Program-made: the position numbers and the translations under genes
IMG/VR virus record: IMGVR_UViG_3300005533_000001
Location: 1 to 35,864 of that record
From: a virus
Length of the DNA: 35,864 nucleotides
Direction: 5' to 3' (one strand)
Shown: piece by piece, positions 2,972-34,298 of the stretch
How positions within the stretch are numbered: position 1 is the first letter of the stretch
Layout: each line of letters starts with the position of its first letter
The notes under the pieces: model-generated
What the model was told of the DNA's origin: nothing
What the model saw: the letters and a program-made list of their open reading frames with translations, nothing else
Databases searched by the model: none

Positions 2972-3037
2972 GTAGTTGGTATTACAGTAGTTAACATCTA
3001 CTAACATTTTATCTTGTTGTTGTATTACACTTTGGAT

Positions 3038-3631
3038 ATGCGCAAACCAAAGCCAAAGCATATTCAAATTCCACTAGAATTAGAAACAGCCCTCGACAAA
3101 GAACGCGCAGCCAATCAGCGCTGGCGCGATTCCCATAAAGAACACATCGCCGAATATAATCGGCAGTACCACGCAGCCCACAAAGCCAAGCGCTCTGCGG
3201 ACAACAAGCGATGGAGAGAAGAAAATAAATGGAGACGTAGGCGCTATCAACGCGAATGGAATCTTGCCAATGCTGCCCATCGGCAAGAATTGAATGCGCG
3301 GTGGGGCGAGAGGCATCCGCGTTATCGTCCAGATTACAAACTGAAGTACAACTACGGCATCACGCTCGAACAGTATGAAAAAATGTTTCAGGCGCAGGAT
3401 GGGAAGTGCGCCATTTGTCCGAACCGGGCACCGGAGAGTGGGCGCGTGCGCCGCCTGCATGTTGACCACGATCACAAATGCTGTCCGGGTAACCGCGCTT
3501 GCGGCAAGTGCGTGCGCGGCCTATTGTGTTCGCGTTGCAACTTGGTCATCGGAAGCGTGGAGGAAAATATGGAGCTATTGATCCAGATGATCGAATACAT
3601 CCGTGCACATACTTCCCCAACTCCCCAATAA
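3038..3631 (+). CDS. Endonuclease VII family (HNH-like) nuclease with N-terminal basic/charged extension
   Basis: C-terminal GITLEQYEKMFQAQDGKCAICPN...LHVDHDHKCCPGNRACGKCVRGLLCSRCNLVIG matches the recombination endonuclease VII signature (CxxC, HVDHDH, GLLCxxCN). The real start is ATG 3038; the track's 3014 is a TTG. The N-terminal 100 aa are Lys/Arg/Glu-rich. Confidence 0.8.
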   Translation: MRKPKPKHIQIPLELETALDKERAANQRWRDSHKEHIAEYNRQYHAAHKAKRSADNKRWREENKWRRRRYQREWNLANAAHRQELNARWGERHPRYRPDYKLKYNYGITLEQYEKMFQAQDGKCAICPNRAPESGRVRRLHVDHDHKCCPGNRACGKCVRGLLCSRCNLVIGSVEENMELLIQMIEYIRAHTSPTPQ

Positions 3632-7150: not shown

Positions 7151-8016
7151 CGTGGGACATTGAAACGTGGGCCGTCTTAGAGCATGAATTCTATACTTAC
7201 CCCGATAATGCTCCTATTGCTCTGGCTTGCGGGCCAAGCCAAGCAGAAACCGACGCGGCGAATCAGGCCGCTAGTGAAGCGAACACGCTCCAAAATGACT
7301 TTCAGCAGCAATTCGGCGAACAGCAGGGCTTCGTCAATCAATTCCTGATTCCTACATTGCAGCAGCAATACCAAGACCCACAAGGTTTTGGCCCGCAGTT
7401 GATCGACTCCTTGGAGGCTAACTTAGTTAACACTTCCGGCGTGCAGGCTTTGAATGCCAAGCAGGCCATCCAATCAAGTTTTGGCACCGCCAATATGGCC
7501 GGTCTTCCGTCTGGCGTACAGCAGGTTGCACTCGCCCAGAACGCCTCTACGGCGGCGCAAAGCGTAGCGCAGGGAACCAACCAAATCGGAGTTGCCAGCG
7601 GCGAAGCTGCGATGGCCCAAAAGGCGGCGGCGCTATCTGGCTTGCAACAAATTCCGCAGACCATGGGCTTGTCTCCGCAAACTGGCAATCAAATGCTCAG
7701 TGCGAATCAGCAAGCATTTAATCAAGCTAACATCGTCAACCAGCAAAGTAACTGGGGCGGTCAGTTGGGTATGGGAATATTGGGCGGCTTAGTGAATGCC
7801 GGTATGGGCGTTCTAACTGGCGGCCTAAGCACGGCAATGGGCATGGGCGGAATGCTTGGAGGCGGCGGCATGCTTGGCGGCTTGCTGGGTGGTGCTAATA
7901 CAGGCGGCGGCATGAGTGATTCGGCAATGGCCGCAATGGATTCTGGAAGTGATGTTGTGCCAATTGGCGGCGGCGGATTAAGCAGCGGTAACACATCTGT
8001 TTTGGGGCCGCTCTAA
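7078..8016 (+). CDS. low-complexity virion protein (Gln-rich N-terminus, Gly/Met-rich C-terminus), internal or ejection-protein-like
   Basis: 312 aa. Contains GMGILGG..GMGGMLGGGGMLGGLLGG repeats. The only start available is TTG 7078, which overlaps the upstream ORF by 73 nt in the -1 frame. The first in-frame ATG is about 140 codons in. Confidence 0.45.
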   Translation: MVRPHSDDSRHFGKLRSVRITTKITWDIETWAVLEHEFYTYPDNAPIALACGPSQAETDAANQAASEANTLQNDFQQQFGEQQGFVNQFLIPTLQQQYQDPQGFGPQLIDSLEANLVNTSGVQALNAKQAIQSSFGTANMAGLPSGVQQVALAQNASTAAQSVAQGTNQIGVASGEAAMAQKAAALSGLQQIPQTMGLSPQTGNQMLSANQQAFNQANIVNQQSNWGGQLGMGILGGLVNAGMGVLTGGLSTAMGMGGMLGGGGMLGGLLGGANTGGGMSDSAMAAMDSGSDVVPIGGGGLSSGNTSVLGPL

Positions 8017-14376: not shown

Positions 14377-14538
14377 CTAATTGGACGCGGATTCAAAGGC
14401 GAGGGATTCTCTTTCTTCGTCAGCTTCCCGTGAAAAGCGTTCCATGTCCGCCTCGCAGGCACCGCATAACCCAAGCGTCCCCGGCCCGTCATATCCGCAA
14501 TATGCGCATTCATTTCCCATTTCTGTGTTCCAGATCAT
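14377..14538 (-). CDS. small zinc-ribbon protein (53 aa; CAYCG...LCGACE)
   Basis: Found by hand translation; it is shorter than the 60-aa track cutoff. Its ATG overlaps the recombinase stop as ATGA, and its stop lies 3 nt before the next gene. Confidence 0.4.
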   Translation of the reverse strand: MIWNTEMGNECAYCGYDGPGTLGLCGACEADMERFSREADEERESLAFESASN

Positions 14539-15086
14539 GCTGCTTCTCCCATAGCTTCGATGACGGAATCGAAGGCAGTAATTGAATCTTCGAGCAGGTA
14601 TGCGCCAGTGCTGGCCATGGACTTGTGCCCAGCCGTCATTCTGAGGCTTTCAATCCCGGCCCCGGCCTTGCGTGCCTGCATCAATCGACTGTGCTTCAGG
14701 ACGTGGGGGAAGCACAGACGCCGGGGAATTCCCGCCGCCTTGCCATACTTTCGCATAATGTACGAAAAGTGGTCGCGGCCCGTGCGCGCCGATGCTCCGG
14801 CAGGCAAGGGGAAGATCGGCCCCGGTGGGCAGGCTTCCAGCAATGTCTTTTCATCCATCAGCGGGTCATCCGGGCGCGATACAAGCCGCTGATCGGTCGC
14901 ATATGACCCCTTGAGCCGTTTAATGGCGATAATGCCGCCCTCAATGTGCTCCCGCCGCAACATATACGCCTCTGAGGCGCGCAATGCATGCAGGTACGTC
15001 ACCAGAATCAATAGGTGATCTTGCGCGCTCTCTTTTTGGGCCGCGCCTAGAAGGGCGCGCACCTGTTCATGGGTCATGTGTTTCAT
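14535..15086 (-). CDS. short tyrosine recombinase / phage-integrase-family catalytic domain protein
   Basis: 183 aa. ALRASE (box I Arg), PHVLKHS (H-x-x-K/R-H) and GHKSMASTGAYL (HxxxxTxxY nucleophile tyrosine) are all present. There is no N-terminal arm or core-binding domain. Confidence 0.55.
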   Translation of the reverse strand: MKHMTHEQVRALLGAAQKESAQDHLLILVTYLHALRASEAYMLRREHIEGGIIAIKRLKGSYATDQRLVSRPDDPLMDEKTLLEACPPGPIFPLPAGASARTGRDHFSYIMRKYGKAAGIPRRLCFPHVLKHSRLMQARKAGAGIESLRMTAGHKSMASTGAYLLEDSITAFDSVIEAMGEAA

Positions 15087-20571: not shown

Positions 20572-21251
20572 TGTTTCACCCATAGCAAGTAAGGCAGTCC
20601 CGGCCATTGTGCCCAGCATTTTTCAGGATTCGCTTTAGCCCAGACATCTGGCAAGTTTTCCCGGTATGCCGCCAATTCCGGCCAACGTGCCACTTGATCT
20701 TTAGTAGCTGGCTTCAATCTCGCAGGCGCGCCCGTGTCAGTTTCGCGGTAATGGTACGTGTATTGGCCCTTGCTACCGTCAGAATACGTCACGGGGTCTA
20801 CCCGGTACGGCCCAGCGGCTTTGTTGATAGCTTGCGCTTCCGCGTGTAACTCCGGCCCTCCGACCGCTTTTAATTCGTAGCGGTGACTGTCAATTTTCGC
20901 GGTACGCTTTGGACGTGTGCCATCGGCAGTCCGCATGCAGCCATGGTTCTTCCCGCCGCATGAGCATCGGCAAACATCCTCGCGTGCTTCCCAGCACGCT
21001 TCGCCGCATGTAGCCTCACTAAGGAAAGCCACAATCGGGCTTGCGCCTTGAGCGATTCGCTTTTCAATTGGATTCAATTGCTTTTCCATACTTGTTAGAT
21101 ACCACCGCGCGGCCCGTGATGCAATTAAATTCGTCACCCGTACCCGCCTGACCATGCCCGCCTGCCCGCCTCTCGTTCTCGGCTCCTGCTCTTTCTCAAT
21201 TAGCGATCTGGCAAAGCTATTGCCGCTTAATTGATTACAGGCGCGCGCCAT
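20568..21251 (-). CDS. Cys-rich hypothetical protein (CGEAC...CRCSCGGKNHGC), first gene of the leftward operon
   Basis: 227 aa with an Arg-rich N-terminus. A GGGGGAGGGAGA RBS precedes ATG 21251. The internal ATG at 21089 is an alternative start. Confidence 0.45.
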   Translation of the reverse strand: MARACNQLSGNSFARSLIEKEQEPRTRGGQAGMVRRVRVTNLIASRAARWYLTSMEKQLNPIEKRIAQGASPIVAFLSEATCGEACWEAREDVCRCSCGGKNHGCMRTADGTRPKRTAKIDSHRYELKAVGGPELHAEAQAINKAAGPYRVDPVTYSDGSKGQYTYHYRETDTGAPARLKPATKDQVARWPELAAYRENLPDVWAKANPEKCWAQWPGLPYLLWVKQ

Positions 21252-21339
21252 GGGGGAACCTTGGTTCTCCCTCCCCCTATAGCAAATTGGGGACAGATAG
21301 ACTCGGAGCCTACGCGCGCGGCCATTAAATGGACGCCAG

Positions 21340-21420
21340 TTTTTCGGTCGTAGGTTTTCGCTCTTTCTTCGCTTTTGCCGCGCGGCGAAAATCGCTTCAA
21401 TCTTCGCTTGCTATTCGCCT
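21340..21420. repeat. phased TTCGC(T/C) pentamer array (about 11-bp period, 5-6 copies)
   Basis: TTCG(C) occurs at 21343, 21357, 21368, 21391 (ATCGC), 21403 and 21414. Confidence 0.5.
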
Positions 21421-21512
21421 ATTTTTCAGCATCTTGCGGCACTAACAAGTAATTAGATATCCACAGAATTATTTTTGATTCTTTATCAGTTTGGCAATTG
21501 AAAAAAAACTTC

Positions 21513-21538
21513 TTGACACGTCTATACTCTAGGATAAT
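21513..21538 (+). promoter_or_regulatory. candidate rightward promoter (TTGACA, short spacer, GATAAT) overlapped by palindrome GGATAATCTATCC at 21532-21544
   Basis: A perfect -35 hexamer sits at 21513-21518 and GATAAT at 21533-21538. The spacer is only 14 nt, which is too short for sigma70. The AT-rich divergent intergenic region continues upstream. Confidence 0.3.
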
Positions 21539-21619
21539 CTATCCCTACAATTCGTGCAGTTCTCTCAGTAGCCAACGGTTTTATGAGTCGATTGGCACGG
21601 AAGAGAAAAGGAAAAACAA

Positions 21620-22174
21620 GTGAGCAAAACATGGTACGAAAAAACCACGTTCCAACCATCTCGCATTGCTACAGAAAATGCCGGTCGCTGGTTTCGGCCA
21701 TTGCCATCCGCAATAGCCAGTGCATTGCACGTCACGGAACCATTAAATGGTTCCAATGGACGTTGGCATGAAACCGTGCAAGATGTTGCGGACGTGCTAC
21801 AGGCGAATGTGCCAAACTTCAATCGTGCGGAATTCGCGCAAGAGGCAAAGGGAAGTGACGATTCCGCTTTTTGGTTGTCAGTTTGGCAAGATGACGGTGG
21901 TCACTGCTGGGATAGTGATGTGACTACACCGGCGGAAAATGCCGCATGGAATTACCTGAAGACTGGCATACCTCCAGCGATTGCAGCAAAAGAAAAAGAC
22001 TCCACTTTTTCGCACCTAATAGAGGTACTGAAAAGCGATGTACGCACCTCAGTGAAAAACTACAGTTTTTTGCTGTGGTTACCTCCATGCTGTGGTTTGG
22101 CTGTGGTCTACCTGCTAACCGCGATTGAAACCCTAGGCTTTGCCGTATCGCGCATTTTCGGAGGTGCAAGGTAA
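21620..22174 (+). CDS. hypothetical protein with C-terminal transmembrane helix
   Basis: 184 aa with a GTG start. Ends in a hydrophobic segment followed by RIFGGAR. Confidence 0.45.
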   Translation: MSKTWYEKTTFQPSRIATENAGRWFRPLPSAIASALHVTEPLNGSNGRWHETVQDVADVLQANVPNFNRAEFAQEAKGSDDSAFWLSVWQDDGGHCWDSDVTTPAENAAWNYLKTGIPPAIAAKEKDSTFSHLIEVLKSDVRTSVKNYSFLLWLPPCCGLAVVYLLTAIETLGFAVSRIFGGAR

Positions 22175-22374
22175 TGAATTCATCCGAGGAAAAACGCGCG
22201 CTATTGGACGCGTGGCACATAGTACGTGATGCCATGGACAAAGCACACAATGGTCATCCCTGTTCTGGTTTCTGCGAGGGTTGGCACAAAGCCGAATCAG
22301 TTCTCTACTACCTTAGCCAGCAATTGAGCGCTGGCTACAAGAGAGGGGAATCAGATGACCTATCTAGAGGCTAA
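22174..22374 (+). CDS. hypothetical small protein
   Basis: 66 aa. TAATG overlap with the upstream gene. GGAGGT SD lies 8 nt upstream. Confidence 0.45.
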   Translation: MNSSEEKRALLDAWHIVRDAMDKAHNGHPCSGFCEGWHKAESVLYYLSQQLSAGYKRGESDDLSRG

Positions 22375-22678
22375 AATCGGGCTGAAGCCTAGCACGATTG
22401 TTTCATTGCACGAATTTCACAGCATTGGGCATGTAGTGAAAACCACAGCTCACACTATGGGCATTGCTCACAGTGGTCATCCACTAGACGCGGTGACGCG
22501 CGATATTACGTTTTATGATTCGCGTGATTGCCGTCTTTTCAACCAAGGTTACATGGTACGCAAACGGCAAGAGTACAGAAACGGTTTCGCATACCGCACA
22601 AAGCGGATTACCATCGACTTACGAAACCAGACCATCGAAGAGATACTCTTACCTATGGGGCAAACTTCACTTTGGTGA
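22355..22678 (+). CDS. hypothetical protein
   Basis: 107 aa. GAGAGGGG RBS upstream. Confidence 0.4.
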   Translation: MTYLEAKIGLKPSTIVSLHEFHSIGHVVKTTAHTMGIAHSGHPLDAVTRDITFYDSRDCRLFNQGYMVRKRQEYRNGFAYRTKRITIDLRNQTIEEILLPMGQTSLW

Positions 22679-22682
22679 CGCC

Positions 22683-22898
22683 ATGGCTAAGTGGTCAGTT
22701 TGCCTCTGGAGGATTCGCGCTAATCGCGCGCCACTGTTAGCGGAAATTTCCTATCAATTGCATGATATCGAATCATGCAAGCCAGAAGACAAGTATCGCG
22801 CGATACGGTTCTATATCGCATTGCAAGCTAACCTATCGGGATTCATCTCCCGCACAACCAAGACGGAAACCATCTACCACGGAGGAGAACATGTATAA
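22683..22898 (+). CDS. hypothetical small protein
   Basis: 71 aa counted from the internal ATG of the track ORF 22515..22898. This start avoids a long overlap with the upstream gene. Confidence 0.3.
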   Translation: MAKWSVCLWRIRANRAPLLAEISYQLHDIESCKPEDKYRAIRFYIALQANLSGFISRTTKTETIYHGGEHV

Positions 22899-23007
22899 AC
22901 TTTGGTTGGAACGTGTTTGCATTGTGGCTGCAATCGCGGTGACGTTTGCCTGTCACCTCGCGTTACTCTGGTTTGCCCATGGCCATCTCCTCGGAGGTGC
23001 ACAGTGA
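22895..23007 (+). CDS. small hydrophobic membrane peptide (37 aa)
   Basis: GGAGGAG RBS upstream of ATG 22895. Carries a single TM-like segment and ends ...LLGGAQ. Confidence 0.4.
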
Positions 23008-23102
23008 CGAATCGCGGATGGCAAGCCAGTATCATTATTGGCATTGCAGTTTGGTTCCTCTGCATTGTCTACACGTACCTAGTGACCGGAGGTGCACGCT
23101 AA
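23004..23102 (+). CDS. small hydrophobic membrane peptide (32 aa)
   Basis: GTG 23004 lies 5 nt after GGAGGT. TM-like segment. Ends ...VTGGAR. Confidence 0.35.
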   Translation: MTNRGWQASIIIGIAVWFLCIVYTYLVTGGAR

Positions 23103-23344
23103 TGACACTGCCAAAGGTTACACTCCCGAAAGTTAACCGCGCGGCACTAGCCAAACATCACAGGATAATCCGCTATGGCGTATTCGGGATAATCGTGATT
23201 GTCTTGGTTGTGCTCCATGGCGATACCTCCGCAGGTTTGATATCGGCAGCATTGCTCAAAGTATTGGATGTGACAGGTGACGTAATTGCCGATAGAGTAC
23301 TGCCGTTCGATTGGCTAAAGACCATTAGCAAGATGGACGATTAG
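23102..23344 (+). CDS. small membrane protein (80 aa)
   Basis: ATG 23102 lies 8 nt after GGAGGT. Contains the hydrophobic segment GIIVIVLVVL. Confidence 0.45.
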   Translation: MTLPKVTLPKVNRAALAKHHRIIRYGVFGIIVIVLVVLHGDTSAGLISAALLKVLDVTGDVIADRVLPFDWLKTISKMDD

Positions 23345-23362
23345 CCCAACCGTTTGCCGTTT

Positions 23363-23393
23363 GCCCACGGTTTCCGCCGTGGGCATTTTTATT
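23363..23393 (+). terminator. rho-independent terminator
   Basis: An 8-bp GC stem GCCCACGG/CCGTGGGC with a 6-nt loop is followed by ATTTTTATT, directly after the stop of the 23102 gene. Confidence 0.6.
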
Positions 23394-23806
23394 GCCGTGG
23401 TCTCACGGTACGGTCGGAAGTTTTTGCCATGGCTTATTCGCCATCACTTCGCCTAATTCCCAATTGGCCAATATCGCGCGCAATGCGCCATAACGCGCGG
23501 AGGGTTTCAGATGACCCTAACCTATCAATATTCCCAACCCTCGCCTGTAGGCTAATAACTCACGAATACAACCTATGTACTCTCTATACACTGGCTTATT
23601 GATTCCGCATTACTTAGCTTATGTACTATGTAGTAATACCCTATCGAAGAAAAGGCGAATCATCCAATGGATACAATAGCTTACAGGCAGTTTTCGCCCT
23701 ATGTTCACTTGCGCCGTTTGTTCGTCTTGCGCTATTCATTCGCCAAGACTGAAAATAGATCATGAAAAGCGGAGGAGATGACACCGCGCGCCGTTTTTCT
23801 GTGGGT

Positions 23807-23830
23807 CATCTCATCTCCATCTCATCTCAT
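23807..23830. repeat. tandem repeat CATCTCATCTC x2 (TCTCAT family)
   Basis: Read directly from the sequence. TCTCAT also recurs at 23961, 23976, 24287 and 24292. Confidence 0.55.
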
Positions 23831-23994
23831 TTTTGCGCGTCCAGTCGCGTCCAATTAGCCTCCAGTGGCGCGCTAGGTCTCAAGCCATGGCGAATTCCGC
23901 AATATTACATAATGCGTAATGCCCACTAACCGCTTTGCCTTGTACCGTTTGCGCGCGCCCGTCTCATTGTCACGTGTCTCATGCGACCGCGCCA

Positions 23995-24045
23995 TAGCGA
24001 CGGCGAAGAAACGGCGAAGACGCGAGCGAATGAAAAGCGAAAAGA
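23995..24045. repeat. inverted copy of the phased pentamer array (GCGAA, 11-12-bp period, 4 copies)
   Basis: GCGAA occurs at 24003, 24014, 24026 and 24037. This is the reverse complement of the array at 21357-21418. Confidence 0.5.
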
Positions 24046-24154
24046 GCGGGTGGTAGAGGCTTTTGGGGGGTGGGGGTGAACCCCATTTGCGGGTAGTGCA
24101 ATTGCCTACTCCTTCTCCCCAATCCCGTTTCTTCTTTCTGTAGCCTTCCCCGGT

Positions 24155-24180
24155 AGCCTTTCGCCGTTGTTTCGCCCTTA
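24155..24180. repeat. two further TTCGCC copies 11 bp apart
   Basis: TTCGCC at 24160 and again at 24171. Confidence 0.4.
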
Positions 24181-24294
24181 GTGCGGTCAAAATGCGTTTT
24201 GTAGGTTAGGTCAGGGTGCGGAGGTAATGCGGAAGGGAAAAACGGCGGGAAGATTTTAATTGCATCGCGGGGGGATTGAGGGTAATCTCATCTC

Positions 24295-24308
24295 ATATCA
24301 TATGATAT
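24295..24308. promoter_or_regulatory. perfect 14-bp palindrome ATATCATATGATAT downstream of candidate promoter TTGCAT-17-TAATCT (24260-24288)
   Basis: Palindrome read directly from the sequence. The -35 matches 5/6 and the -10 is weak. Confidence 0.35.
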
Positions 24309-24496
24309 CAACCGGCAGCCAGCCCGCAGCGGGGATAACGGTGTTGGAGGTGCTGATCTATTACGGGTTGTTACTGGCCGCCGCCATGATTTGGCTTCAT
24401 TTCGGCATGAAGAAGTGCCGCTATTGCGGCAGACATAGGATGGATGGACACAAAAAGGAGTGCCCGCGCTATAGCGCCAAGAGAGGATACCTACTA

Positions 24497-24961
24497 ATGG
24501 AAACACACGTTGAACTGCCCAAGCCCACCTTGAACGTCGAACTGCTGTTGAAGGTGAAAAACCATATTCTCGAAGAACCCAAGCGCCTGCGCATGTCGAA
24601 GTGGTTCATTAAGGGCACCCCGAATGGCCATGGCAGATCAGTATCGCGTGGTTACGGCGAACCCATCGACTTTGAAGTCCCAGCTTGCGGCACTGTGGGC
24701 TGTATTGCCGGATGGACAGAACTGCTCAACCACCCTGAAGATTACGAAGGTGCCACCGGCATCAGTGGAGTGCACTGCGGTCGCGCCAAGAACGAACTTG
24801 GCCTGATAGACCAAAGCCTGTTTTTTGTTGATTGCTGGCCAGAACCCTACAAGTCCGACTATTACCAAGCCGAAGACAACCAGACGCGCGCCCAGATTGT
24901 AGGCGCGCTCATCGACAAACTGATTGAAGTTGGCGAAGAACAGCTTTTCGGGCGGGAGTAA
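24497..24961 (+). CDS. paralog A of a duplicated Cys-motif protein family (KHILEEPKRLRM ... CGTVGCIAGW ... LFFV.CWPEPY)
   Basis: GAGAGGA RBS upstream of ATG 24497. The in-frame upstream ATG at 24406 would add a CRYC...ECPRY zinc-knuckle extension. Shares a conserved nucleotide block with 28270-28317. Confidence 0.55.
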   Translation: METHVELPKPTLNVELLLKVKNHILEEPKRLRMSKWFIKGTPNGHGRSVSRGYGEPIDFEVPACGTVGCIAGWTELLNHPEDYEGATGISGVHCGRAKNELGLIDQSLFFVDCWPEPYKSDYYQAEDNQTRAQIVGALIDKLIEVGEEQLFGRE

Positions 24962-27602: not shown

Positions 27603-27778
27603 TGAGTGAATCTCGTACTTGTAATTGGTACCGCTGCGATAAAGGCAAGCGGGATACTGCGGTCTATGAAGTAACCGGAGAACATATCGATGGCAAGACC
27701 GTAGATCGCCGCTATTGTGACGAGCACGCCGCCGCCTGCGAGAAGGCAGGCTTTACCGTTGCGCCAAAAAACCGATGA
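27599..27778 (+). CDS. small Cys-rich protein (59 aa)
   Basis: ATGATG start overlaps the upstream stop. Contains CNWYRCD...YCDEHAAAC. Confidence 0.4.
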   Translation: MMSESRTCNWYRCDKGKRDTAVYEVTGEHIDGKTVDRRYCDEHAAACEKAGFTVAPKNR

Positions 27779-28056
27779 GCGACCCGAAATTCAGGCCATC
27801 TGTGCAGCTTCGCTTCCGCAGCGCGGCGCAGTTCGCGCGCGTGAAGAAAGCCGCCGAAGACGAGGGCATTTCTACCAATGAATACATTGTCCGCCTGCTG
27901 GAACTTGAGGAGAATCCGCGCGTGGGGAAATCCATGACCGATCTGGCCAAAATCATCGAGCAACGCAGCCGCGATCACGATACCAAATCATGCAGGCTCT
28001 ATGGCTGTGGCACTTGCCGGGTGATGGGCGTGAAGGACGTGAGTCGCGGCCTATGA
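27775..28056 (+). CDS. ribbon-helix-helix (CopG/Arc-like) DNA-binding protein
   Basis: LRFRSAAQFARVKKAAEDEGISTNEYIVRLL fits the RHH beta-strand plus helix pattern. Confidence 0.5.
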   Translation: MSDPKFRPSVQLRFRSAAQFARVKKAAEDEGISTNEYIVRLLELEENPRVGKSMTDLAKIIEQRSRDHDTKSCRLYGCGTCRVMGVKDVSRGL

Positions 28057-28331
28057 TTATTACCCGCACCGATGTGTGCCAGTGCGACGAATGCGGGCAT
28101 CCGTGGCTATCGCGTTGCAAGGGCGGGGCGCTCCCCGCGCAATGTCCGCACTGTCACACGCGGCACTGGAATGATTCTGTAATACCATTACCGAGAAACA
28201 GGAGAACCAATGGCAAAATCAAAAGCCGCCAAATACAAAGTTCCCGCAGCGGGCCGCAAATTGTTGTTGCGGGTAAAGAAACATATCCTCGAAGAACCCA
28301 AGCGCCTGCGCATGGCCGAATGGATGCTTAG
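28053..28331 (+). CDS. small zinc-ribbon protein (CQCDECGH...CPHCH)
   Basis: ATGA overlap with the RHH gene. The 3' end overlaps the next gene by about 120 nt, so the true end is uncertain. Confidence 0.35.
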   Translation: MIITRTDVCQCDECGHPWLSRCKGGALPAQCPHCHTRHWNDSVIPLPRNRRTNGKIKSRQIQSSRSGPQIVVAGKETYPRRTQAPAHGRMDA

Positions 28332-28746
28332 CAAGGAATATTGCGCCAACATGGAGCCAATTTTCCAAACCGCTGGTACGGCTTGGGGAGAACCCCCGCG
28401 CAGAGGAATACAATGGCCATCGTGTGGTACAACCGGCTGTATTGCCGGATGGATGGAATTGCTCGCCAACGGTATGCCAGAGGGCGACGCAGACTTAATG
28501 GACAGGATGGATAGCGCTCAGGAATTCGCCTCCAAGGTGCTGGAATTTGATAAGCAGCCATGGGGCACATACACCGAACCGGGACTTTTCTTTGTGAGCG
28601 AGTGGCCATACAAATTTGCCGAGAGCTACTCGAAGGCCAAGACTCAGGCCAAGCGCGCCAAAATTGTGGCTGCCGTGATTGATGACTTCTTGGCCGACCC
28701 GGAGCCTTACCTCCCCGCACCAGAACCCGAGGAAGGCGATGACTAA
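28210..28746 (+). CDS. paralog B of the duplicated Cys-motif family (KHILEEPKRLRM ... CGTTGCIAGW ... LFFVSEWPY)
   Basis: 178 aa. CAGGAG RBS upstream. Clear protein and nucleotide similarity to 24497..24961. Confidence 0.55.
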   Translation: MAKSKAAKYKVPAAGRKLLLRVKKHILEEPKRLRMAEWMLSKEYCANMEPIFQTAGTAWGEPPRRGIQWPSCGTTGCIAGWMELLANGMPEGDADLMDRMDSAQEFASKVLEFDKQPWGTYTEPGLFFVSEWPYKFAESYSKAKTQAKRAKIVAAVIDDFLADPEPYLPAPEPEEGDD

Positions 28747-29841: not shown

Positions 29842-30076
29842 CGGGGTGCGGCGCTTGAACGAAAAAACGGCAATCGGCGAATACGAGAAATTCCACCGGA
29901 ATGGCACAACCGCATCCATCAGCTTTTTGGAGTGGCTGAAACGCGAGCAGATCAAGATCGTGGACATAGACGACAAGGCGCAGTTTTGGATTAAGCCGAA
30001 CTGATATTCTCTTTTCATTCGCCTCCCTGTACAATCCTGAAAGCGGCGCAAGCCGTAATCTAATTTCAGGAGAAGT

Positions 30077-31537: not shown

Positions 31538-31584
31538 GGCAACTCCCCTAAACTAACTTTCGTCGCGATTCATTCGCCCCGGAG

Positions 31585-31873: not shown

Positions 31874-32209
31874 ATGGACACAAATCGCCCCAGATGCACT
31901 ATAATCGGGGCGATGCCTAAGCCGCTATTACTGGACGGCAAGCCATTGACGCAGGAGAGGCGTGCGGGGCCAGCTTTGAATCGAGTAATCGCCTTTCTTG
32001 AAACCCTATCCGACAATGAAGTGGTCACCTTGGCTGAGTTTGAGCAATACCACCTAATGAGCCGTGAGCGCATTAAGTCGGCGGCCAAGCACCATCCAGC
32101 CCTTGCCCCCTATAGTTATCTGGTTCCACGTGGTAGCGGTGGTGGTTATTACATTTTGGGCAGCAAGAAAGCAATTGCCGCTGCCAAAAGGGTGTTCTCT
32201 AAAATTTGA
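31874..32209 (+). CDS. hypothetical protein (possible wHTH)
   Basis: 111 aa. Confidence 0.45.
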   Translation: MDTNRPRCTIIGAMPKPLLLDGKPLTQERRAGPALNRVIAFLETLSDNEVVTLAEFEQYHLMSRERIKSAAKHHPALAPYSYLVPRGSGGGYYILGSKKAIAAAKRVFSKI

Positions 32210-33246
32210 AAATTGCCGATCTGGCCGCAAAGACCAAAGCAGCAGAGAATGAACAGATTGAACATCTCCGGGCTAAGAGCGCCGAACTAGATAAAGAAGT
32301 TCGCCGCCTTCGCCAAATCATTGGTGAGCAACGCGAGATAGCTACCGGCCTCGTTGCCGCCGTGAAGGCCACCGATCCCTTCCCGCGAATCGCGTGGAAG
32401 TCTCCCGCCAAGTCCGGCAAGCCCATCATCCCGGTGTTGAAATTGAGCGATCTACACATCGGTGAAGTTATCAGGAAGGATGAGACTGAAGGCTTTGGCG
32501 CGTTCAATTGGGACATTGCGCAAGAGCGTGCTGCCTACATTGTGAATAGCTTTCTGCGCTGGGTTGAGACGCAGCGATATGGTTACCGCATTGATGAGTG
32601 CTGCATTTTTGGCGAGGGCGATTACATCTCCGGCGACATTCACCGCGAGTTGTCTGTGACCGCCGAGTTTCCCGTGCCGGTGCAGACCGCTAAGGCTGGC
32701 TTGTTAATTGGCCATCTCATTTCGCTGATCGCCCCGCATTTCGCTAAGGTTACATTCCACCAAGTTGGTGCCGATAACCACAGCAGGCTCAATCCAAAGC
32801 CGCAATTCAAACAGAAAGCACAGAACAGCTACAGCTATTTGGTGCATACCATCGCCGCACAGGCGTTGGCGAACCACAAAAATGTTGAAATTGTAACCGC
32901 GACCGGAATCAAACATCTGGCCAGCGTCAATGGTTTTCGTTTCCTGATTGAGCATGGCGACACCGTGAAAGCCTTCATGGGCATTCCATGGTATGGGCTT
33001 GAGCGGTCGCGCGCGAGAGAGGCGACGCGGCGCATGAATACCGACAAGGGGTTTCACTATATGAGCATTGCCCACTGGCACGTGCCATGCCTGATTGGCA
33101 ATAGCATTGTAGTCAACGGCTCATTATGCGGAACCAATGAATTCGATCATGGGTGCGGCAGATATGCTGCCCCGGCGCAGGTTGCATTCATGGTTCACCC
33201 GGAGCACGGAATGTTCGGCTTGACCCCGTTTCGCACAGAAATTTGA
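32206..33246 (+). CDS. calcineurin-like metallophosphoesterase with N-terminal coiled coil
   Basis: Metallophosphatase motifs appear in order: DLHIG (DxH), GEGDYISGD (GDxxD), ADNHSR (GNH-like), EHGD, HWHV (GHxH-like). The start is a TTG that overlaps the upstream stop. Confidence 0.5.
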   Translation: MKIADLAAKTKAAENEQIEHLRAKSAELDKEVRRLRQIIGEQREIATGLVAAVKATDPFPRIAWKSPAKSGKPIIPVLKLSDLHIGEVIRKDETEGFGAFNWDIAQERAAYIVNSFLRWVETQRYGYRIDECCIFGEGDYISGDIHRELSVTAEFPVPVQTAKAGLLIGHLISLIAPHFAKVTFHQVGADNHSRLNPKPQFKQKAQNSYSYLVHTIAAQALANHKNVEIVTATGIKHLASVNGFRFLIEHGDTVKAFMGIPWYGLERSRAREATRRMNTDKGFHYMSIAHWHVPCLIGNSIVVNGSLCGTNEFDHGCGRYAAPAQVAFMVHPEHGMFGLTPFRTEI

Positions 33247-33396
33247 ACTTTTTTCACAACCAAATCAACCAGATGCAATTACAATGTTGACAGTAAGGCA
33301 GTAGGCCATGGCAGCATTAGGTAGTGGGGACTATCGTATGTTGCCATGGCTGATTGATTGTGATGACGCATTTGAGTTCTTTCTGGACATTGCCCA

Positions 33397-33699
33397 ATGG
33401 AAAAGAAACCAGACGCAAAATTTGAGCAAGGCTCAACCCGCTCCCACCACGCACCACGGTACGAACTACTCCCAAAAGCCGCGATTGACCGACTGGTAAA
33501 GCGGCTCGAAATAGGCGCTGAAATTCACGGCGACCACAATTGGCGCGGCGGCGGCCCAGAGTTCATTGCCGAAACCAAGCGTCACCTTGTTGCTCACGTT
33601 CTCAACTTTAGCGAGGGCGATACCAGCGACGATCACCTGTCGGCCATCCTATGCAATGCCGCCTTCCTAGCCCACTTTGAGGCTCAAAAGAAGCCGTGA
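33397..33699 (+). CDS. small all-alpha NTP-pyrophosphohydrolase-like protein (MazG/DUF550-like, tentative)
   Basis: LEIGAEIHGDHNWRGG resembles a G..KYG..NW motif, and DDHLSAILCNAAFL resembles a MazG-like helix. There is no good RBS. A competing ORF 33308..33499 lies in another frame. Confidence 0.4.
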   Translation: MEKKPDAKFEQGSTRSHHAPRYELLPKAAIDRLVKRLEIGAEIHGDHNWRGGGPEFIAETKRHLVAHVLNFSEGDTSDDHLSAILCNAAFLAHFEAQKKP

Positions 33700-34298
33700 C
33701 ATCCACCATTCAGGTTTACTCAGGCGGACTAATTGACCCGCTGCGGCCCAACCCGAGTGATATCCACATAGAAGACCTAGCGCATGCCCTGTCCAATATC
33801 TGCCGATTCACCGGCCACACTTCCAGCTTCTACAGCGTAGCCGAGCACGCTGTCCGCGTCAGTGCGATCTGTCCGCCAAAAGATCAGTTCTGGGGCTTGA
33901 ATCACGATGACAGTGAAGCCTATCTCTGCGATTTTGCGCGCCCCATCAAGCACCATCCACGCATGGCCATCTATCGCGAAGCCGAAGAACGATTGATGCG
34001 CGTCATCGCCAAACGCCTTAGCTTGGAAATGCCGATACCGGAAAGCGTGAAGCGCGCCGACACCATCCTGCTGATGACCGAATGCCGCGATCTGATGAAG
34101 CCGCTCCAGTGGGAGTGGAATAATGGCCTGCAACCATTGCAGGAAAGAATCGTTCCATGGCCACCACAAAAAGCCAAGGAAGCATTCTTGGCGCGCTTCT
34201 ATGAACTGGCCGCCGCGCAGTTGAGGAACGAAAGACGAAGTGAGCAACGATACGCTGATCGCCGCCGCAAAACTAAGAGCCAAACAACTGGCGCTTGA
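33696..34298 (+). CDS. HD-domain phosphohydrolase (YfbR-like 5'-deoxynucleotidase family)
   Basis: SVAEHAVRV (H), GLNHDDSEAY (HD) and a downstream CDF..P.KH fit the HD superfamily pattern. Confidence 0.6.
   Translation: MTSTIQVYSGGLIDPLRPNPSDIHIEDLAHALSNICRFTGHTSSFYSVAEHAVRVSAICPPKDQFWGLNHDDSEAYLCDFARPIKHHPRMAIYREAEERLMRVIAKRLSLEMPIPESVKRADTILLMTECRDLMKPLQWEWNNGLQPLQERIVPWPPQKAKEAFLARFYELAAAQLRNERRSEQRYADRRRKTKSQTTGA

Follow-up and report, generated by a model that had tools for sequence, protein, structure and literature searches.

On both sides of a small operon in this viral DNA, TTCGC pentamers and their reverse complement GCGAA recur about once per helical turn, which raises the question of what these repeats are for. 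The original prediction described them as two inverted arrays and offered an iteron-type origin, a partition site or a looping operator set as explanations. Here, the repeats were characterized in the window, i.e. the whole stretch of 35,864 nucleotides analysed, and in a total of 55 kb of the phage, corresponding to 54% of its ~102-kb genome.

The repeat unit is a head-to-tail dimer of 16 bases, TTCGC-N6-TTCGC, with the consensus tTTCGCYnTTnnTTCGCY. At least ten copies of this 16-base site lie within two large gene-free stretches of the phage genome, 21090-21619 and 23345-24496. With 0.53 and 1.15 kb these non-coding regions are unusually long for a phage, and together they account for about 3% of the 55 kb. 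The sites found there, and two candidates further downstream, are:

21343-21419, minus strand: left array of six to seven units at 11-12 bp spacing, PWM scores 26.4 and 20.9
21357, 21368, 21403 and 21414, plus strand: TTCGC starts of the left array
21343 (TTCGG), 21380 (GCGCG) and 21391 (ATCGC): degenerate units of the left array
23437-23452, plus strand: exact dimer TTCGCCATCACTTCGC, PWM score 21.6
23644-23659, minus strand: one-mismatch dimer TTCGCCTTTTCTTCGA (minus-strand reading), PWM score 23.3
23693-23743, plus strand: one-mismatch dimers at 23693-23708 and 23728-23743 with a weaker site at about 23709-23726 between them, PWM scores 19.8, 16.9 and 22.0
24002-24042, plus strand: right array, GCGAA starts at 24003, 24014, 24026 and 24037, PWM scores 25.1 and 25.5
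24160-24175, plus strand: exact dimer TTCGCCGTTGTTTCGC, PWM score 22.7
30007-30022, plus strand: candidate extra site TTCTCTTTTCATTCGC, intergenic, PWM score 19.1, the top match outside the training sites
31562-31577, plus strand: candidate extra site GTCGCGATTCATTCGC in a short intergenic gap, PWM score 13.9

In both arrays the direct repeats are phased by whole helical turns, the four units on the right being spaced by 11-12 bp like those on the left. The left array consists of dimers 23 bp apart whose units, read as GCGAA, point leftward, while the right array comprises two exact dimers, also 23 bp apart, pointing rightward. The dimer at 24160 is convergent with the right array, with which it forms a 17-nt inverted repeat of 88% complementarity. 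All pentamer positions in the original prediction are correct, including the degenerate copies at 21343 and 21391 and the TTCGCC copies at 24160 and 24171. Its description of two inverted arrays holds in that both exist, but it is incomplete: the sites at 23437, 23644, 23693 and 23728, the weak site near 23709 and the candidates at 30007 and 31562 had been missed. With sites in both orientations spread over 2.9 kb, the repeats are a dispersed, mixed-orientation site family more than two inverted arrays.

Six exact dimers occur in the window, compared with 0.28 expected from an order-2 Markov simulation (maximum of 2 in 300 runs). With up to one mismatch, 13 dimers were counted versus 4.2 ± 2.3 in dinucleotide-preserving shuffles, none of 100 of which reached 13. 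All six exact dimers and three one-mismatch dimers are contained in the two gene-free regions, and no exact TTCGC-N6-TTCGC was found outside them in the 55 kb examined. Same-strand TTCGC pairs no more than 30 bp apart show spacings of 11 bp (6 pairs), 12 bp (1) and 23 bp (2) inside the two regions and no others; in the remaining ~53 kb each spacing was seen at most twice and 11 bp never. As the single pentamer is only ca. 2.5 times denser in the two regions (10.5 versus 4.2 per kb), the exceptional feature is the phasing rather than the pentamer density. A chance or compositional artefact might be suspected, since lone TTCGC is about twice as common across the window as mononucleotide composition predicts. 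However, with the excess of dimers concentrated in ~3% of the sequence and the 11-bp spacing absent elsewhere, this explanation has virtually no probability left and is ruled out. Hence, the original prediction was right to dismiss compositional bias, and the pentamer count and spacing histogram it had proposed revealed no similar density and spacing in the rest of the 55 kb. Its view of non-random repeats phased on one face of the DNA is upheld, and this arrangement would suit a bound protein.

The arrays are embedded in a set of putative transcription signals around the central operon. The following features, all promoters among them being predicted, are relevant to the interpretation:

21096-21141, minus strand: left copy of a 29-nt inverted repeat (ACGGnGnGAnGAnTTTAATTGCATCnCGGG)
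21253-21278, minus strand: G-run hairpin GGGAGAACC-AA-GGTTCCCCC (minus strand), between the left array and the left outward promoter
21420-21540, no strand: AT-rich block adjoining the left array, GC 0.30, the most AT-rich stretch of the region in 80-bp windows
21513-21540, plus strand: promoter-like site for the central operon, TTGACA-16-TAATCT, a consensus match only
21620-23344, plus strand: central operon; its products are small, and several have predicted membrane segments
23362-23395, plus strand: intrinsic-terminator-like hairpin and T-run closing the central operon
24066-24085, plus strand: G-run GGGGGGTGGGGGTGAACCCC, between the right array and the 24160 dimer
24243-24288, plus strand: right copy of the 29-nt inverted repeat, with the outward-facing promoter-like TTGCAT-17-TAATCT
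27775-28056, plus strand: predicted Arc-like ribbon-helix-helix (RHH) protein with a Cys-rich C-terminal module

The AT-rich block could be a DNA-unwinding element. It also contains back-to-back promoter-like sites, the one on the minus strand being TTGCCA-18-AATAAT (21497 to 21468). The central operon has a GC content of ~0.49, below that of its flanks, and the products tested gave no Pfam or PHROG family match. The two copies of the 29-nt inverted repeat align with a local score of 33, against a shuffle maximum of 28. In the left copy, the outward-facing promoter-like TTGCAT-17-TATCTA ends 6 nt short of 21089, the probable true start of the first leftward gene. This start is conserved in the N-termini of the L001 and L021 homologues, so that the Arg-rich N-terminus of the first leftward gene is probably untranslated. 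Relatives of this gene with 60-83% identity, which are closer than the 57% of L021, carry no such repeats, and arrays are likewise missing from the closest of them (74-83%). Both observations weaken the earlier suggestion that the Arg-rich protein binds the arrays. Transposon ends of the Tn7/Mu type were considered and rejected: there is no transposase, sites are located both inside and outside the bracketed segment, and the 29-nt inverted repeat outside both arrays reads as a promoter pair, one member of which ends 6 nt before the conserved start.

A closely related repeat is found in contig L021, which was chosen solely for encoding a 57%-identical homologue of the gene adjoining the left array, a 173-aa gene common to both. 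L021 carries four tandem 11-bp units, AGCGAACGAAT and AGCGAACGAAA, that fit the window consensus TTCGCYnTTnn, and its iteron pair differs from the window dimer at 24026 by 1 nt in 16 (blastn, 94% over 17 nt). The array sits in the middle of an ORF of 256 aa, whose N-terminal domain matches phrog_9474, 'replication initiation protein' (E = 3.6e-11). L036, a 72%-identical member of this family, has a variant iteron, GCGACCGGAAA, in 3.5 copies at the same linker position; its sites form a single cluster inside the initiator gene, as is canonical for in-gene origins, and the gene is followed by one for an IstB/DnaC-like loader. The L021 and L036 iterons likewise have G7 or C6 runs on their 3' side. 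When IMG/VR was searched blind for runs of three phased units, 22 loci came up, in nine of which the array is located mid-ORF (194-312 aa) on the coding strand. Five of the eight array-bearing ORFs scanned match the PHROG families DnaD-like helicase loader, replication initiation O-like or replication initiation protein. By likeness to lambda and SPP1, the in-gene arrays of L021 and the other viral contigs may act as origins. In one IMG/VR contig, L048, a TerS-like gene is immediately preceded by a similar array. The DNA-binding domain of this initiator family also occurs fused to HNH nucleases, in P0028 and P0122, and these sequences suggest that the module is traded between replication and conflict functions. 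ICP1 Odn offers a parallel for a recognition module shared by these functions (PMC8263062).

By sequence and phasing, the repeats of the window thus appear to belong to the iteron type inside the replisome-organizer (initiator) genes of other phages. Because of this type, we tentatively read them as iterons of an initiator-type origin-binding protein that would mark an origin or an origin-control region, a reading that we place somewhat short of an even chance. One sequence-specific protein would recognise a head-to-tail pair of TTCGCY half-sites that share a helix face at a distance of 11 bp; such dimers stand alone or follow one another at 23-bp intervals. Regions 21090-21619 and 23345-24496 would together form the origin or origin-control region, with the initiator-type protein oligomerising on the arrays and unwinding taking place at the adjoining AT-rich block (21420-21540). 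The extra dimers and the inverted second array may be auxiliary or pairing sites, comparable to SPP1 oriL/oriR, P4 ori/crr and P1 incC/incA, and an effect of binding on the two outward-facing promoter-like sites ~250-335 bp away is conceivable.

The iteron-type origin is supported by the repeat statistics, the confinement to non-coding DNA, the arrays of L021, L036 and the IMG/VR loci, the AT-rich stretch, the long gene-free gaps and the precedent of SPP1 oriR. The cumulative GC-skew analysis proposed with the original prediction, run on the 55 kb, adds a minimum at 23993, 10 bp from the right array, although the skew switch coincides with the gene-orientation switch and is confounded by it. 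The main weakness is the lack of an initiator in the 55 kb: no homologue of the L021 initiator family or of eight other array-bearing initiators was detected there by hmmsearch, hhalign, phmmer and tblastn, six-frame ORFs included, and a profile search of 5.8 billion proteins returned no match from any contig of ~102 kb. The scattering of the sites, the confounded skew and the relatives of the neighbouring gene that have no arrays also count against an origin, as does the placement of the AT-rich block, which in the GCGAA direction of the left array is on its 5' side, while in-gene origins have it on the 3' side. The right array has no AT-rich neighbour. Finally, the candidate at 30007 is located 6 nt upstream of a TACAAT -10-like hexamer and that at 31562, which has ATTCATTCGCC in common with the 23728 site, ~15 nt before a start codon; such promoter-like and RBS positions give the distribution the look of a regulon.

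Operators for a transcription regulator of the phage, the Arc-like RHH protein at 27775 or another, are the main rival, which we consider doubtful. Such a regulator would coordinate expression of the divergent early operons and from some internal promoters, perhaps through a loop joining the two arrays. The arrays do lie in the divergent control region that separates the leftward from the rightward operons. Each array has one of the two homologous outward-facing promoter-like sites downstream of it at a similar distance, ~250-335 bp, and the extra sites 30007 and 31562 occupy promoter or RBS positions. Relatives of the phage carry, at the corresponding place, either palindromes resembling operators (L001/L009) or a divergent HTH gene (L006). 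Yet the main arrays overlap no predicted -35 or -10 element and are outside the central-operon promoter too; overlap with a promoter-like element is limited to the weak 30007 site. A usual operator set has far fewer sites, and where the context is readable in other phages, this type of site falls inside initiator genes. As for the binder, Arc, omega, ParR and other RHH proteins contact subsites separated by roughly one turn of the helix, and the RHH protein encoded 3.5 kb downstream is the sole recognised DNA-binding candidate in the window; no DNA-binding family was found among the central operon genes or their immediate neighbours. The predicted structure (pLDDT above 90 for residues 10-45; top matches Arc, FitA, CopG, VapB and AmrZ) confirms, at the level of the model, the RHH assignment of the original prediction, the fold being Arc-like. 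Three viral contigs encode relatives with 54-59% identity and a conserved DNA-contacting strand, but none of the three has an exact dimer within ±6 kb, which counts against the RHH protein as the binder and against operators. Phased repeats of 10-12 bp would also fit RHH/wHTH adaptor arrays, for which the same three relatives without repeats have to be considered. A centromere-like partition site of a plasmid-prophage, modelled on the 11-bp iterons of R1 parC with the RHH protein ParR or on tubC/TubR, would account for the phased direct repeats in two clusters, the presence of an RHH protein and a short tyrosine-recombinase-domain ORF at 14535-15086. It is nevertheless very unlikely, as neither the precomputed Pfam matches for the genes called in the 55 kb nor our own scans include a ParA, ParM/actin-like, TubZ or ParB family, the arrays have no RHH gene beside them, and at least 24 tRNA genes give the phage the appearance of a large lytic-type genome.

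Two other alternatives take the missing initiator as their starting point. The arrays may be 'orphan' initiator-binding sites without an initiator gene of their own, which we regard as improbable. As a decoy or hijack of a replisome organizer, they would capture or titrate that of a co-infecting or resident phage; as a looped bipartite origin, they would physically couple initiation to both outward-facing early promoters. Relic iterons left by the loss or replacement of an L021-like initiator gene, either non-functional or serving in trans only as a decoy or with a borrowed initiator, would explain why the arrays and the neighbouring 173-aa gene co-occur in L021, where the arrays lie inside the initiator gene, and why the window is without one. 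This is an unlikely history, since the 11-bp phasing is strict, six dimers are perfect and the array is duplicated in inverted form, all of which speaks for continuing selection, and no remnant of initiator coding sequence surrounds the arrays. The GCGAA repeats could also act as RNA in outward leaders, as they point to each outward promoter and inverted pairs could form stems, or as recombination, transposition or packaging sites, for which the L048 array preceding the TerS-like gene may be cited. Such roles are highly improbable: the RNA folds no better than shuffled sequence (z = -1.1 and -2.4) and gives no Rfam match at gathering scores, sites occur in both orientations within one gene-free region (IG2), the arrays are upstream rather than downstream of the predicted outward promoters, and no transposase or terminase gene is nearby. 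Of the three options raised originally, the iteron-type origin is thus the best supported, the looping operator persists as a rival, and the partition site is left without support.

The repeats can be compared with several known systems. In-gene phage origins (lambda O/ori-lambda; the DnaD-like and O-like genes; L021, L036 and L041-L061) have the same 11-bp GCGAA/TTCGC-type unit in runs of about four. In contrast, the arrays of the window are non-coding, exist as an inverted pair and have five isolated dimers alongside; they consist of 23-bp dimer units, have no 3' AT-rich or low-complexity run, and are without an initiator gene inside or nearby. In SPP1, origins combine direct repeats with an AT-rich unwinding element, and oriR is a second, intergenic set of initiator-binding direct repeats beside moron genes bracketed by transcription signals (PMC6316719). 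The window resembles it in having direct repeats at an intergenic location, but the cognate SPP1 initiator is known to be gp38, within whose gene oriL is located, whereas no initiator is seen in the 55 kb here and binding is putative.

Opposite-orientation iteron clusters that bracket a gene block of 1-4.5 kb are known from P1 incC-repA-incA, F ori2 and P4 ori/crr, where the iteron period is ~22-23 bp and pairing or looping between the clusters serves control. The opposite clusters and 23-bp dimer units that bracket an operon in the window are similar, but in those systems the clusters enclose the initiator gene itself, or else the initiator is known, while here they enclose an operon for small, partly membrane-type proteins. 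The R1 parC/ParR, omega and Arc arrays consist of direct repeats phased at ~11 bp in two clusters. The window shares the phasing, the two clusters and an RHH protein with R1 parC/ParR, and differs in having no partition NTPase, an RHH gene 3.5 kb away and relatives of that protein without sites. In lambda, the OL and OR clusters lie on either side of a small central gene block where early transcription diverges, and the CII site reads TTGC-N6-TTGC, which is, like the dimer here, a short direct repeat with a spacer of 6 bp. Compared with OL/OR, the sites of the window are direct repeats that are not dyad-symmetric, lie off the predicted main promoters and come with no repressor gene that we could find; the two systems are alike in that here, too, two clusters lie ca. 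2.6 kb apart, and the 30007 site straddles a -35-like position.

The real unit of the repeats is a head-to-tail dimer, TTCGC-N6-TTCGC (GCGAA in reverse), with the consensus tTTCGCYnTTnnTTCGCY. The original prediction had described two inverted arrays of single pentamers; its coordinates were all correct on re-check and both arrays stand, but the picture was incomplete, as the dimers at 23437, 23644 (minus strand), 23693 and 23728 and a weak one at ~23709 had been overlooked. The sites and the elements around them are as follows, with the orientation of a site given as the direction of GCGAA:

Within 21096-21141, minus strand: predicted left outward-facing promoter-like site, TTGCAT-17-TATCTA
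21156-21619: IG1, gene-free stretch left of the central small-protein operon, as delimited by the gene callers (start moved to 21090)
21343-21419, leftward: left array, 6-7 units, dimers 23 bp apart
23345-24496: IG2, gene-free stretch right of the operon, as delimited by the gene callers
23437, leftward: dimer
23644 (minus strand), rightward: dimer
23693, ~23709 (weak) and 23728, leftward: dimers
24003-24041, rightward: right array, two dimers 23 bp apart
24160, leftward: dimer
Within 24243-24288, plus strand: predicted right outward-facing promoter-like site, TTGCAT-17-TAATCT

In the window, six exact dimers were observed against 0.28 expected, and 13 dimers with at most one mismatch against 4.2 +/- 2.3. 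Over all the sequence examined, 55.1 kb of the ~102-kb phage genome (window coordinates -9414 to 45706), the exact dimers are confined to IG1 or IG2. The spacing histogram proposed as a check showed just three distances between same-strand TTCGC copies in IG1 and IG2, namely 11 bp (six pairs), 12 bp (one) and 23 bp (two), and the 11-bp spacing is absent from the rest of the 55 kb. A chance origin of the pattern is excluded. A position weight matrix trained on nine sites found its top matches beyond this set at about 30006-30007 and 31561-31562, both intergenic; non-coding DNA makes up 14.5% of the sequence. That a protein binds the sites is suggested by their phasing, their shared consensus and their restriction to non-coding DNA.

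The ~102-kb contig was recovered in two assemblies (Logan SRR5579871_25991, 102,259 bp; ENA k141_2466477, 102,370 bp), whose different break points suggest that the genome is circular or circularly permuted. It carries genes for endonuclease VII, a phrog_284 exonuclease, a MazZ-like dATP/dGTP pyrophosphohydrolase and a dNMP phosphatase as well as an SU10-type adaptor gene, and was assigned to a phage because of endonuclease VII, the nucleotide-pool enzymes, the adaptor and a tRNA cluster. A DNA similarity search against known phages found no match. Between ~21.1 and 12.7 kb the genes point leftward, and from 21.6 kb on they point rightward; IG1 was taken to begin at 21090, since the first leftward gene has homologues that begin at residues equivalent to MEKQLNPIEK. 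The operon between IG1 and IG2 is low in GC and comes with a promoter-like site and a terminator-like hairpin of its own; its small proteins, partly of membrane type, gave no family match. The first called gene past IG2 (24497-24961) has a paralogue at 28210-28746, both phrog_889-like and with the motif KxHILEEPKRLRM in common, and a 183-aa ORF on the minus strand (14535-15086) belongs to the tyrosine recombinase (Phage_integrase) family, with the catalytic domain only. No tRNA or Rfam match was found inside the window, and at least 24 tRNA genes are clustered just to its right (fetched locus L039, 14145-20664; contig ~70.9-77.5 kb; window-equivalent ~39.1-45.6 kb), where a palindromic TTATTCGCGAATAGCGAACG lies between tRNA-Met and the start codon of the next gene. 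A nucleotide-pool and DNA-modification toolkit (window 32206-34298 and 3014-3631; fetched locus L038, 1969-6416) comprises the exonuclease, the MazZ-like enzyme, the dNMP phosphatase, two endonuclease VII genes and, upstream, several methyltransferases and a sugar epimerase, and suggests that the phage DNA may be modified.

The comparison covered 29 metagenomic loci with a homologue of the gene beside the left array. L021, alone of these, contains AGCGAACGAAT and AGCGAACGAAA, four exact 11-bp tandem units that match the window consensus including Y6 and T8T9, which the search had not demanded; one of its pairs matches the 24026 dimer at all but a single base. From the frequency of such arrays in a scan of IMG/VR (described below), with the size of that collection assumed, we estimate that to meet one by chance in ~170 kb of relatives would be very unlikely (order of 1e-4). 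In L021, the array is found midway through an ORF of 256 aa, with a ACCAAACC-type low-complexity run after it. The N-terminal 121 residues of this ORF resemble phrog_9474, 'replication initiation protein' (E = 3.6e-11), and in its family the N-domain is conserved, the DNA repeats set the peptide of the linker, and the C-domains are exchangeable, some of them PF09524 and a few HNH nucleases. The protein of another locus, L036, is 72% identical to that of L021, with GCGACCGGAAA x3.5 at the equivalent position and an IstB/DnaC-like gene following the initiator gene. In the layout known from lambda O and SPP1 gp38 (SPP1 details: PMC6316719), the origin is located within the initiator gene. L021 and L036 have a layout of this type. 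Among relatives of the L021 N-domain, P0028, P0122 and P0061 either contain an HNH nuclease domain or are called HNH endonuclease in their source; such proteins recall ICP1 Odn, an origin-directed nuclease whose specificity imitates that of RepA (PMC8263062).

A blind scan of IMG/VR, in which three phased consensus units were required, returned 22 loci. In nine of them the array lies mid-ORF on the coding strand (ORFs of 194-312 aa); at least seven of these arrays precede an AT-rich or short-period repeat run. Five of eight scanned ORFs match PHROG families of DnaD-like helicase loaders, O-like replication initiation or replication initiation proteins. The other arrays lie between genes, in diverse settings; in L048 (1241-1267), three phased GCGAA units stand immediately upstream of a TerS-like gene, which is followed by a large-terminase-like ORF. 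Hence, the motif type is typical of origins and not exclusive to them.

The search for a protein that could read the sites covered the same 55 kb. It encodes neither an L021-family initiator nor a relative of the eight other initiators that contain arrays (best hhalign probability 10.6%), a profile search of a 5.8-billion-protein collection gave 98 initiator relatives, none from a contig of ~102 kb, and a single-protein initiator query against IMG/VR had no match. Pfam and PHROG scans of ~60 window ORFs identified no initiator, no partition protein and no regulator except the RHH (ribbon-helix-helix) protein. A decayed initiator pseudogene in IG2 was rejected, as neither six-frame translation nor tblastn gave a signal. 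The RHH protein at 27775, one of the binders originally suggested, is real: its N-terminal 45 residues form a conserved family, MKFRPQxQLRFRD...G.S.NEW(I/V)LR, Arc was the only match in a PDB sequence search (E = 0.44), and the AlphaFold model, confident over residues 10-45, has Arc, FitA, CopG, VapB and AmrZ as best structural matches. However, three viral contigs with 54-59%-identical relatives of it lack an exact dimer or phased-repeat cluster within 6 kb. The other named candidate, the first leftward gene, was rejected, because its presence is uncorrelated with the motif: relatives of 52-83% identity, including L001/L009, L016 and L062 with 10-kb flanks, are without TTCGC dimers, and only L021 has the arrays. 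Its Arg-rich N-terminus probably lies upstream of the real start. At the equivalent position, L006 has a divergent HTH gene, while upstream of the homologue in L001/L009 one cluster of four GTGTCA-N4-TGACAC palindromes (L009 9768-9889 = L001 ~7768-7889) looks like a different, classical operator-like solution.

Around the arrays, the most AT-rich 120 bp (GC 0.30) directly adjoins the left one. The cumulative GC skew, suggested as a check for an origin, reaches its lowest point over the 55 kb at 23993, 10 bp short of the right array, and not at the gene-orientation switch at 21.1-21.6 kb; the value is confounded by transcription and local composition. Global alignment of the two flanks showed nothing alike beyond the arrays. 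Local alignment identified a significant 29-nt inverted repeat outside both arrays (21113-21141 and 24243-24271), which reads as two homologous outward-facing promoters, both predicted. Each array is upstream of, and points to, its own predicted promoter at ~250-335 bp. The left promoter stops 6 nt short of the conserved start codon at 21089, so that the mRNA would be nearly leaderless. Inspection of the dimer flanks by eye did not reveal a -10 element at constant distance. G-run/C-run elements, some hairpin-capable, occur 15-100 bp 3' of the GCGAA arrays (21253-21278 and 24066-24085), with like elements 3' of the arrays in the two initiator-gene origins (L021 ~700-725; L036 ~2876-2905). Simple repeats at 23800-23830 and 24277-24310 consist of CATCTCATCTC x2, TCATA x4.6 and TGnGGGTnATCTCATCTC, an 18-nt direct repeat that overlaps, with its second copy, the -10 of the right predicted promoter.

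The sequence evidence for the sites is strong, but their function and binder are inferred. An iteron or origin reading, one of the options originally offered, is favoured, because wherever the context of this repeat type can be interpreted it is an initiator gene, and because position, skew and AT-richness agree with it. It is weakened by the absence of a cognate initiator from the 55 kb, by the scattered dimers of mixed orientation, where a canonical in-gene origin is a single cluster, and by the family-like sites at 30007 and 31562, which occupy promoter or RBS positions. These two sites would be accounted for if the repeats were operators serving a transcription regulator, as would the symmetry around the two predicted outward promoters, and relatives place operators or regulators at the equivalent position; however, none of the predicted promoters overlaps the arrays, and the search turned up no regulator correlated with them. 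Since initiators often regulate transcription too, the origin and operator readings are compatible. A partition site, also proposed originally, fares worse, as no partition NTPase gene was found in the 55 kb, and a function at the RNA level is not supported, with no Rfam match and no significant structure.

To our knowledge, the origins of large environmental phages have almost never been mapped. If the arrays are an origin or control region, they provide a concrete locus for a 102-kb, tRNA-rich phage of an uncultured lineage. An origin here would also mean that the 11-bp TTCGC-type iteron, normally within replisome-organizer genes, can stand free as duplicated inverted arrays, which raises the question of which protein reads the sites and whether it is supplied in cis or in trans. 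Should the repeats instead be operators for the Arc-like RHH protein, the locus would be an ordinary phage switch, unusually rich in sites. As an adjacent initiator was sought and not found in the 55 kb examined, the locus does not fit the canonical initiator-embedded class of origin. What is new is best described as free-standing, duplicated, inverted iterons that bracket a moron-like operon; iterons of this type usually lie inside initiator genes. In mechanism, the locus is closest to multi-site initiator-binding regions such as SPP1 oriL/oriR, P4 ori/crr and P1 incC-repA-incA.
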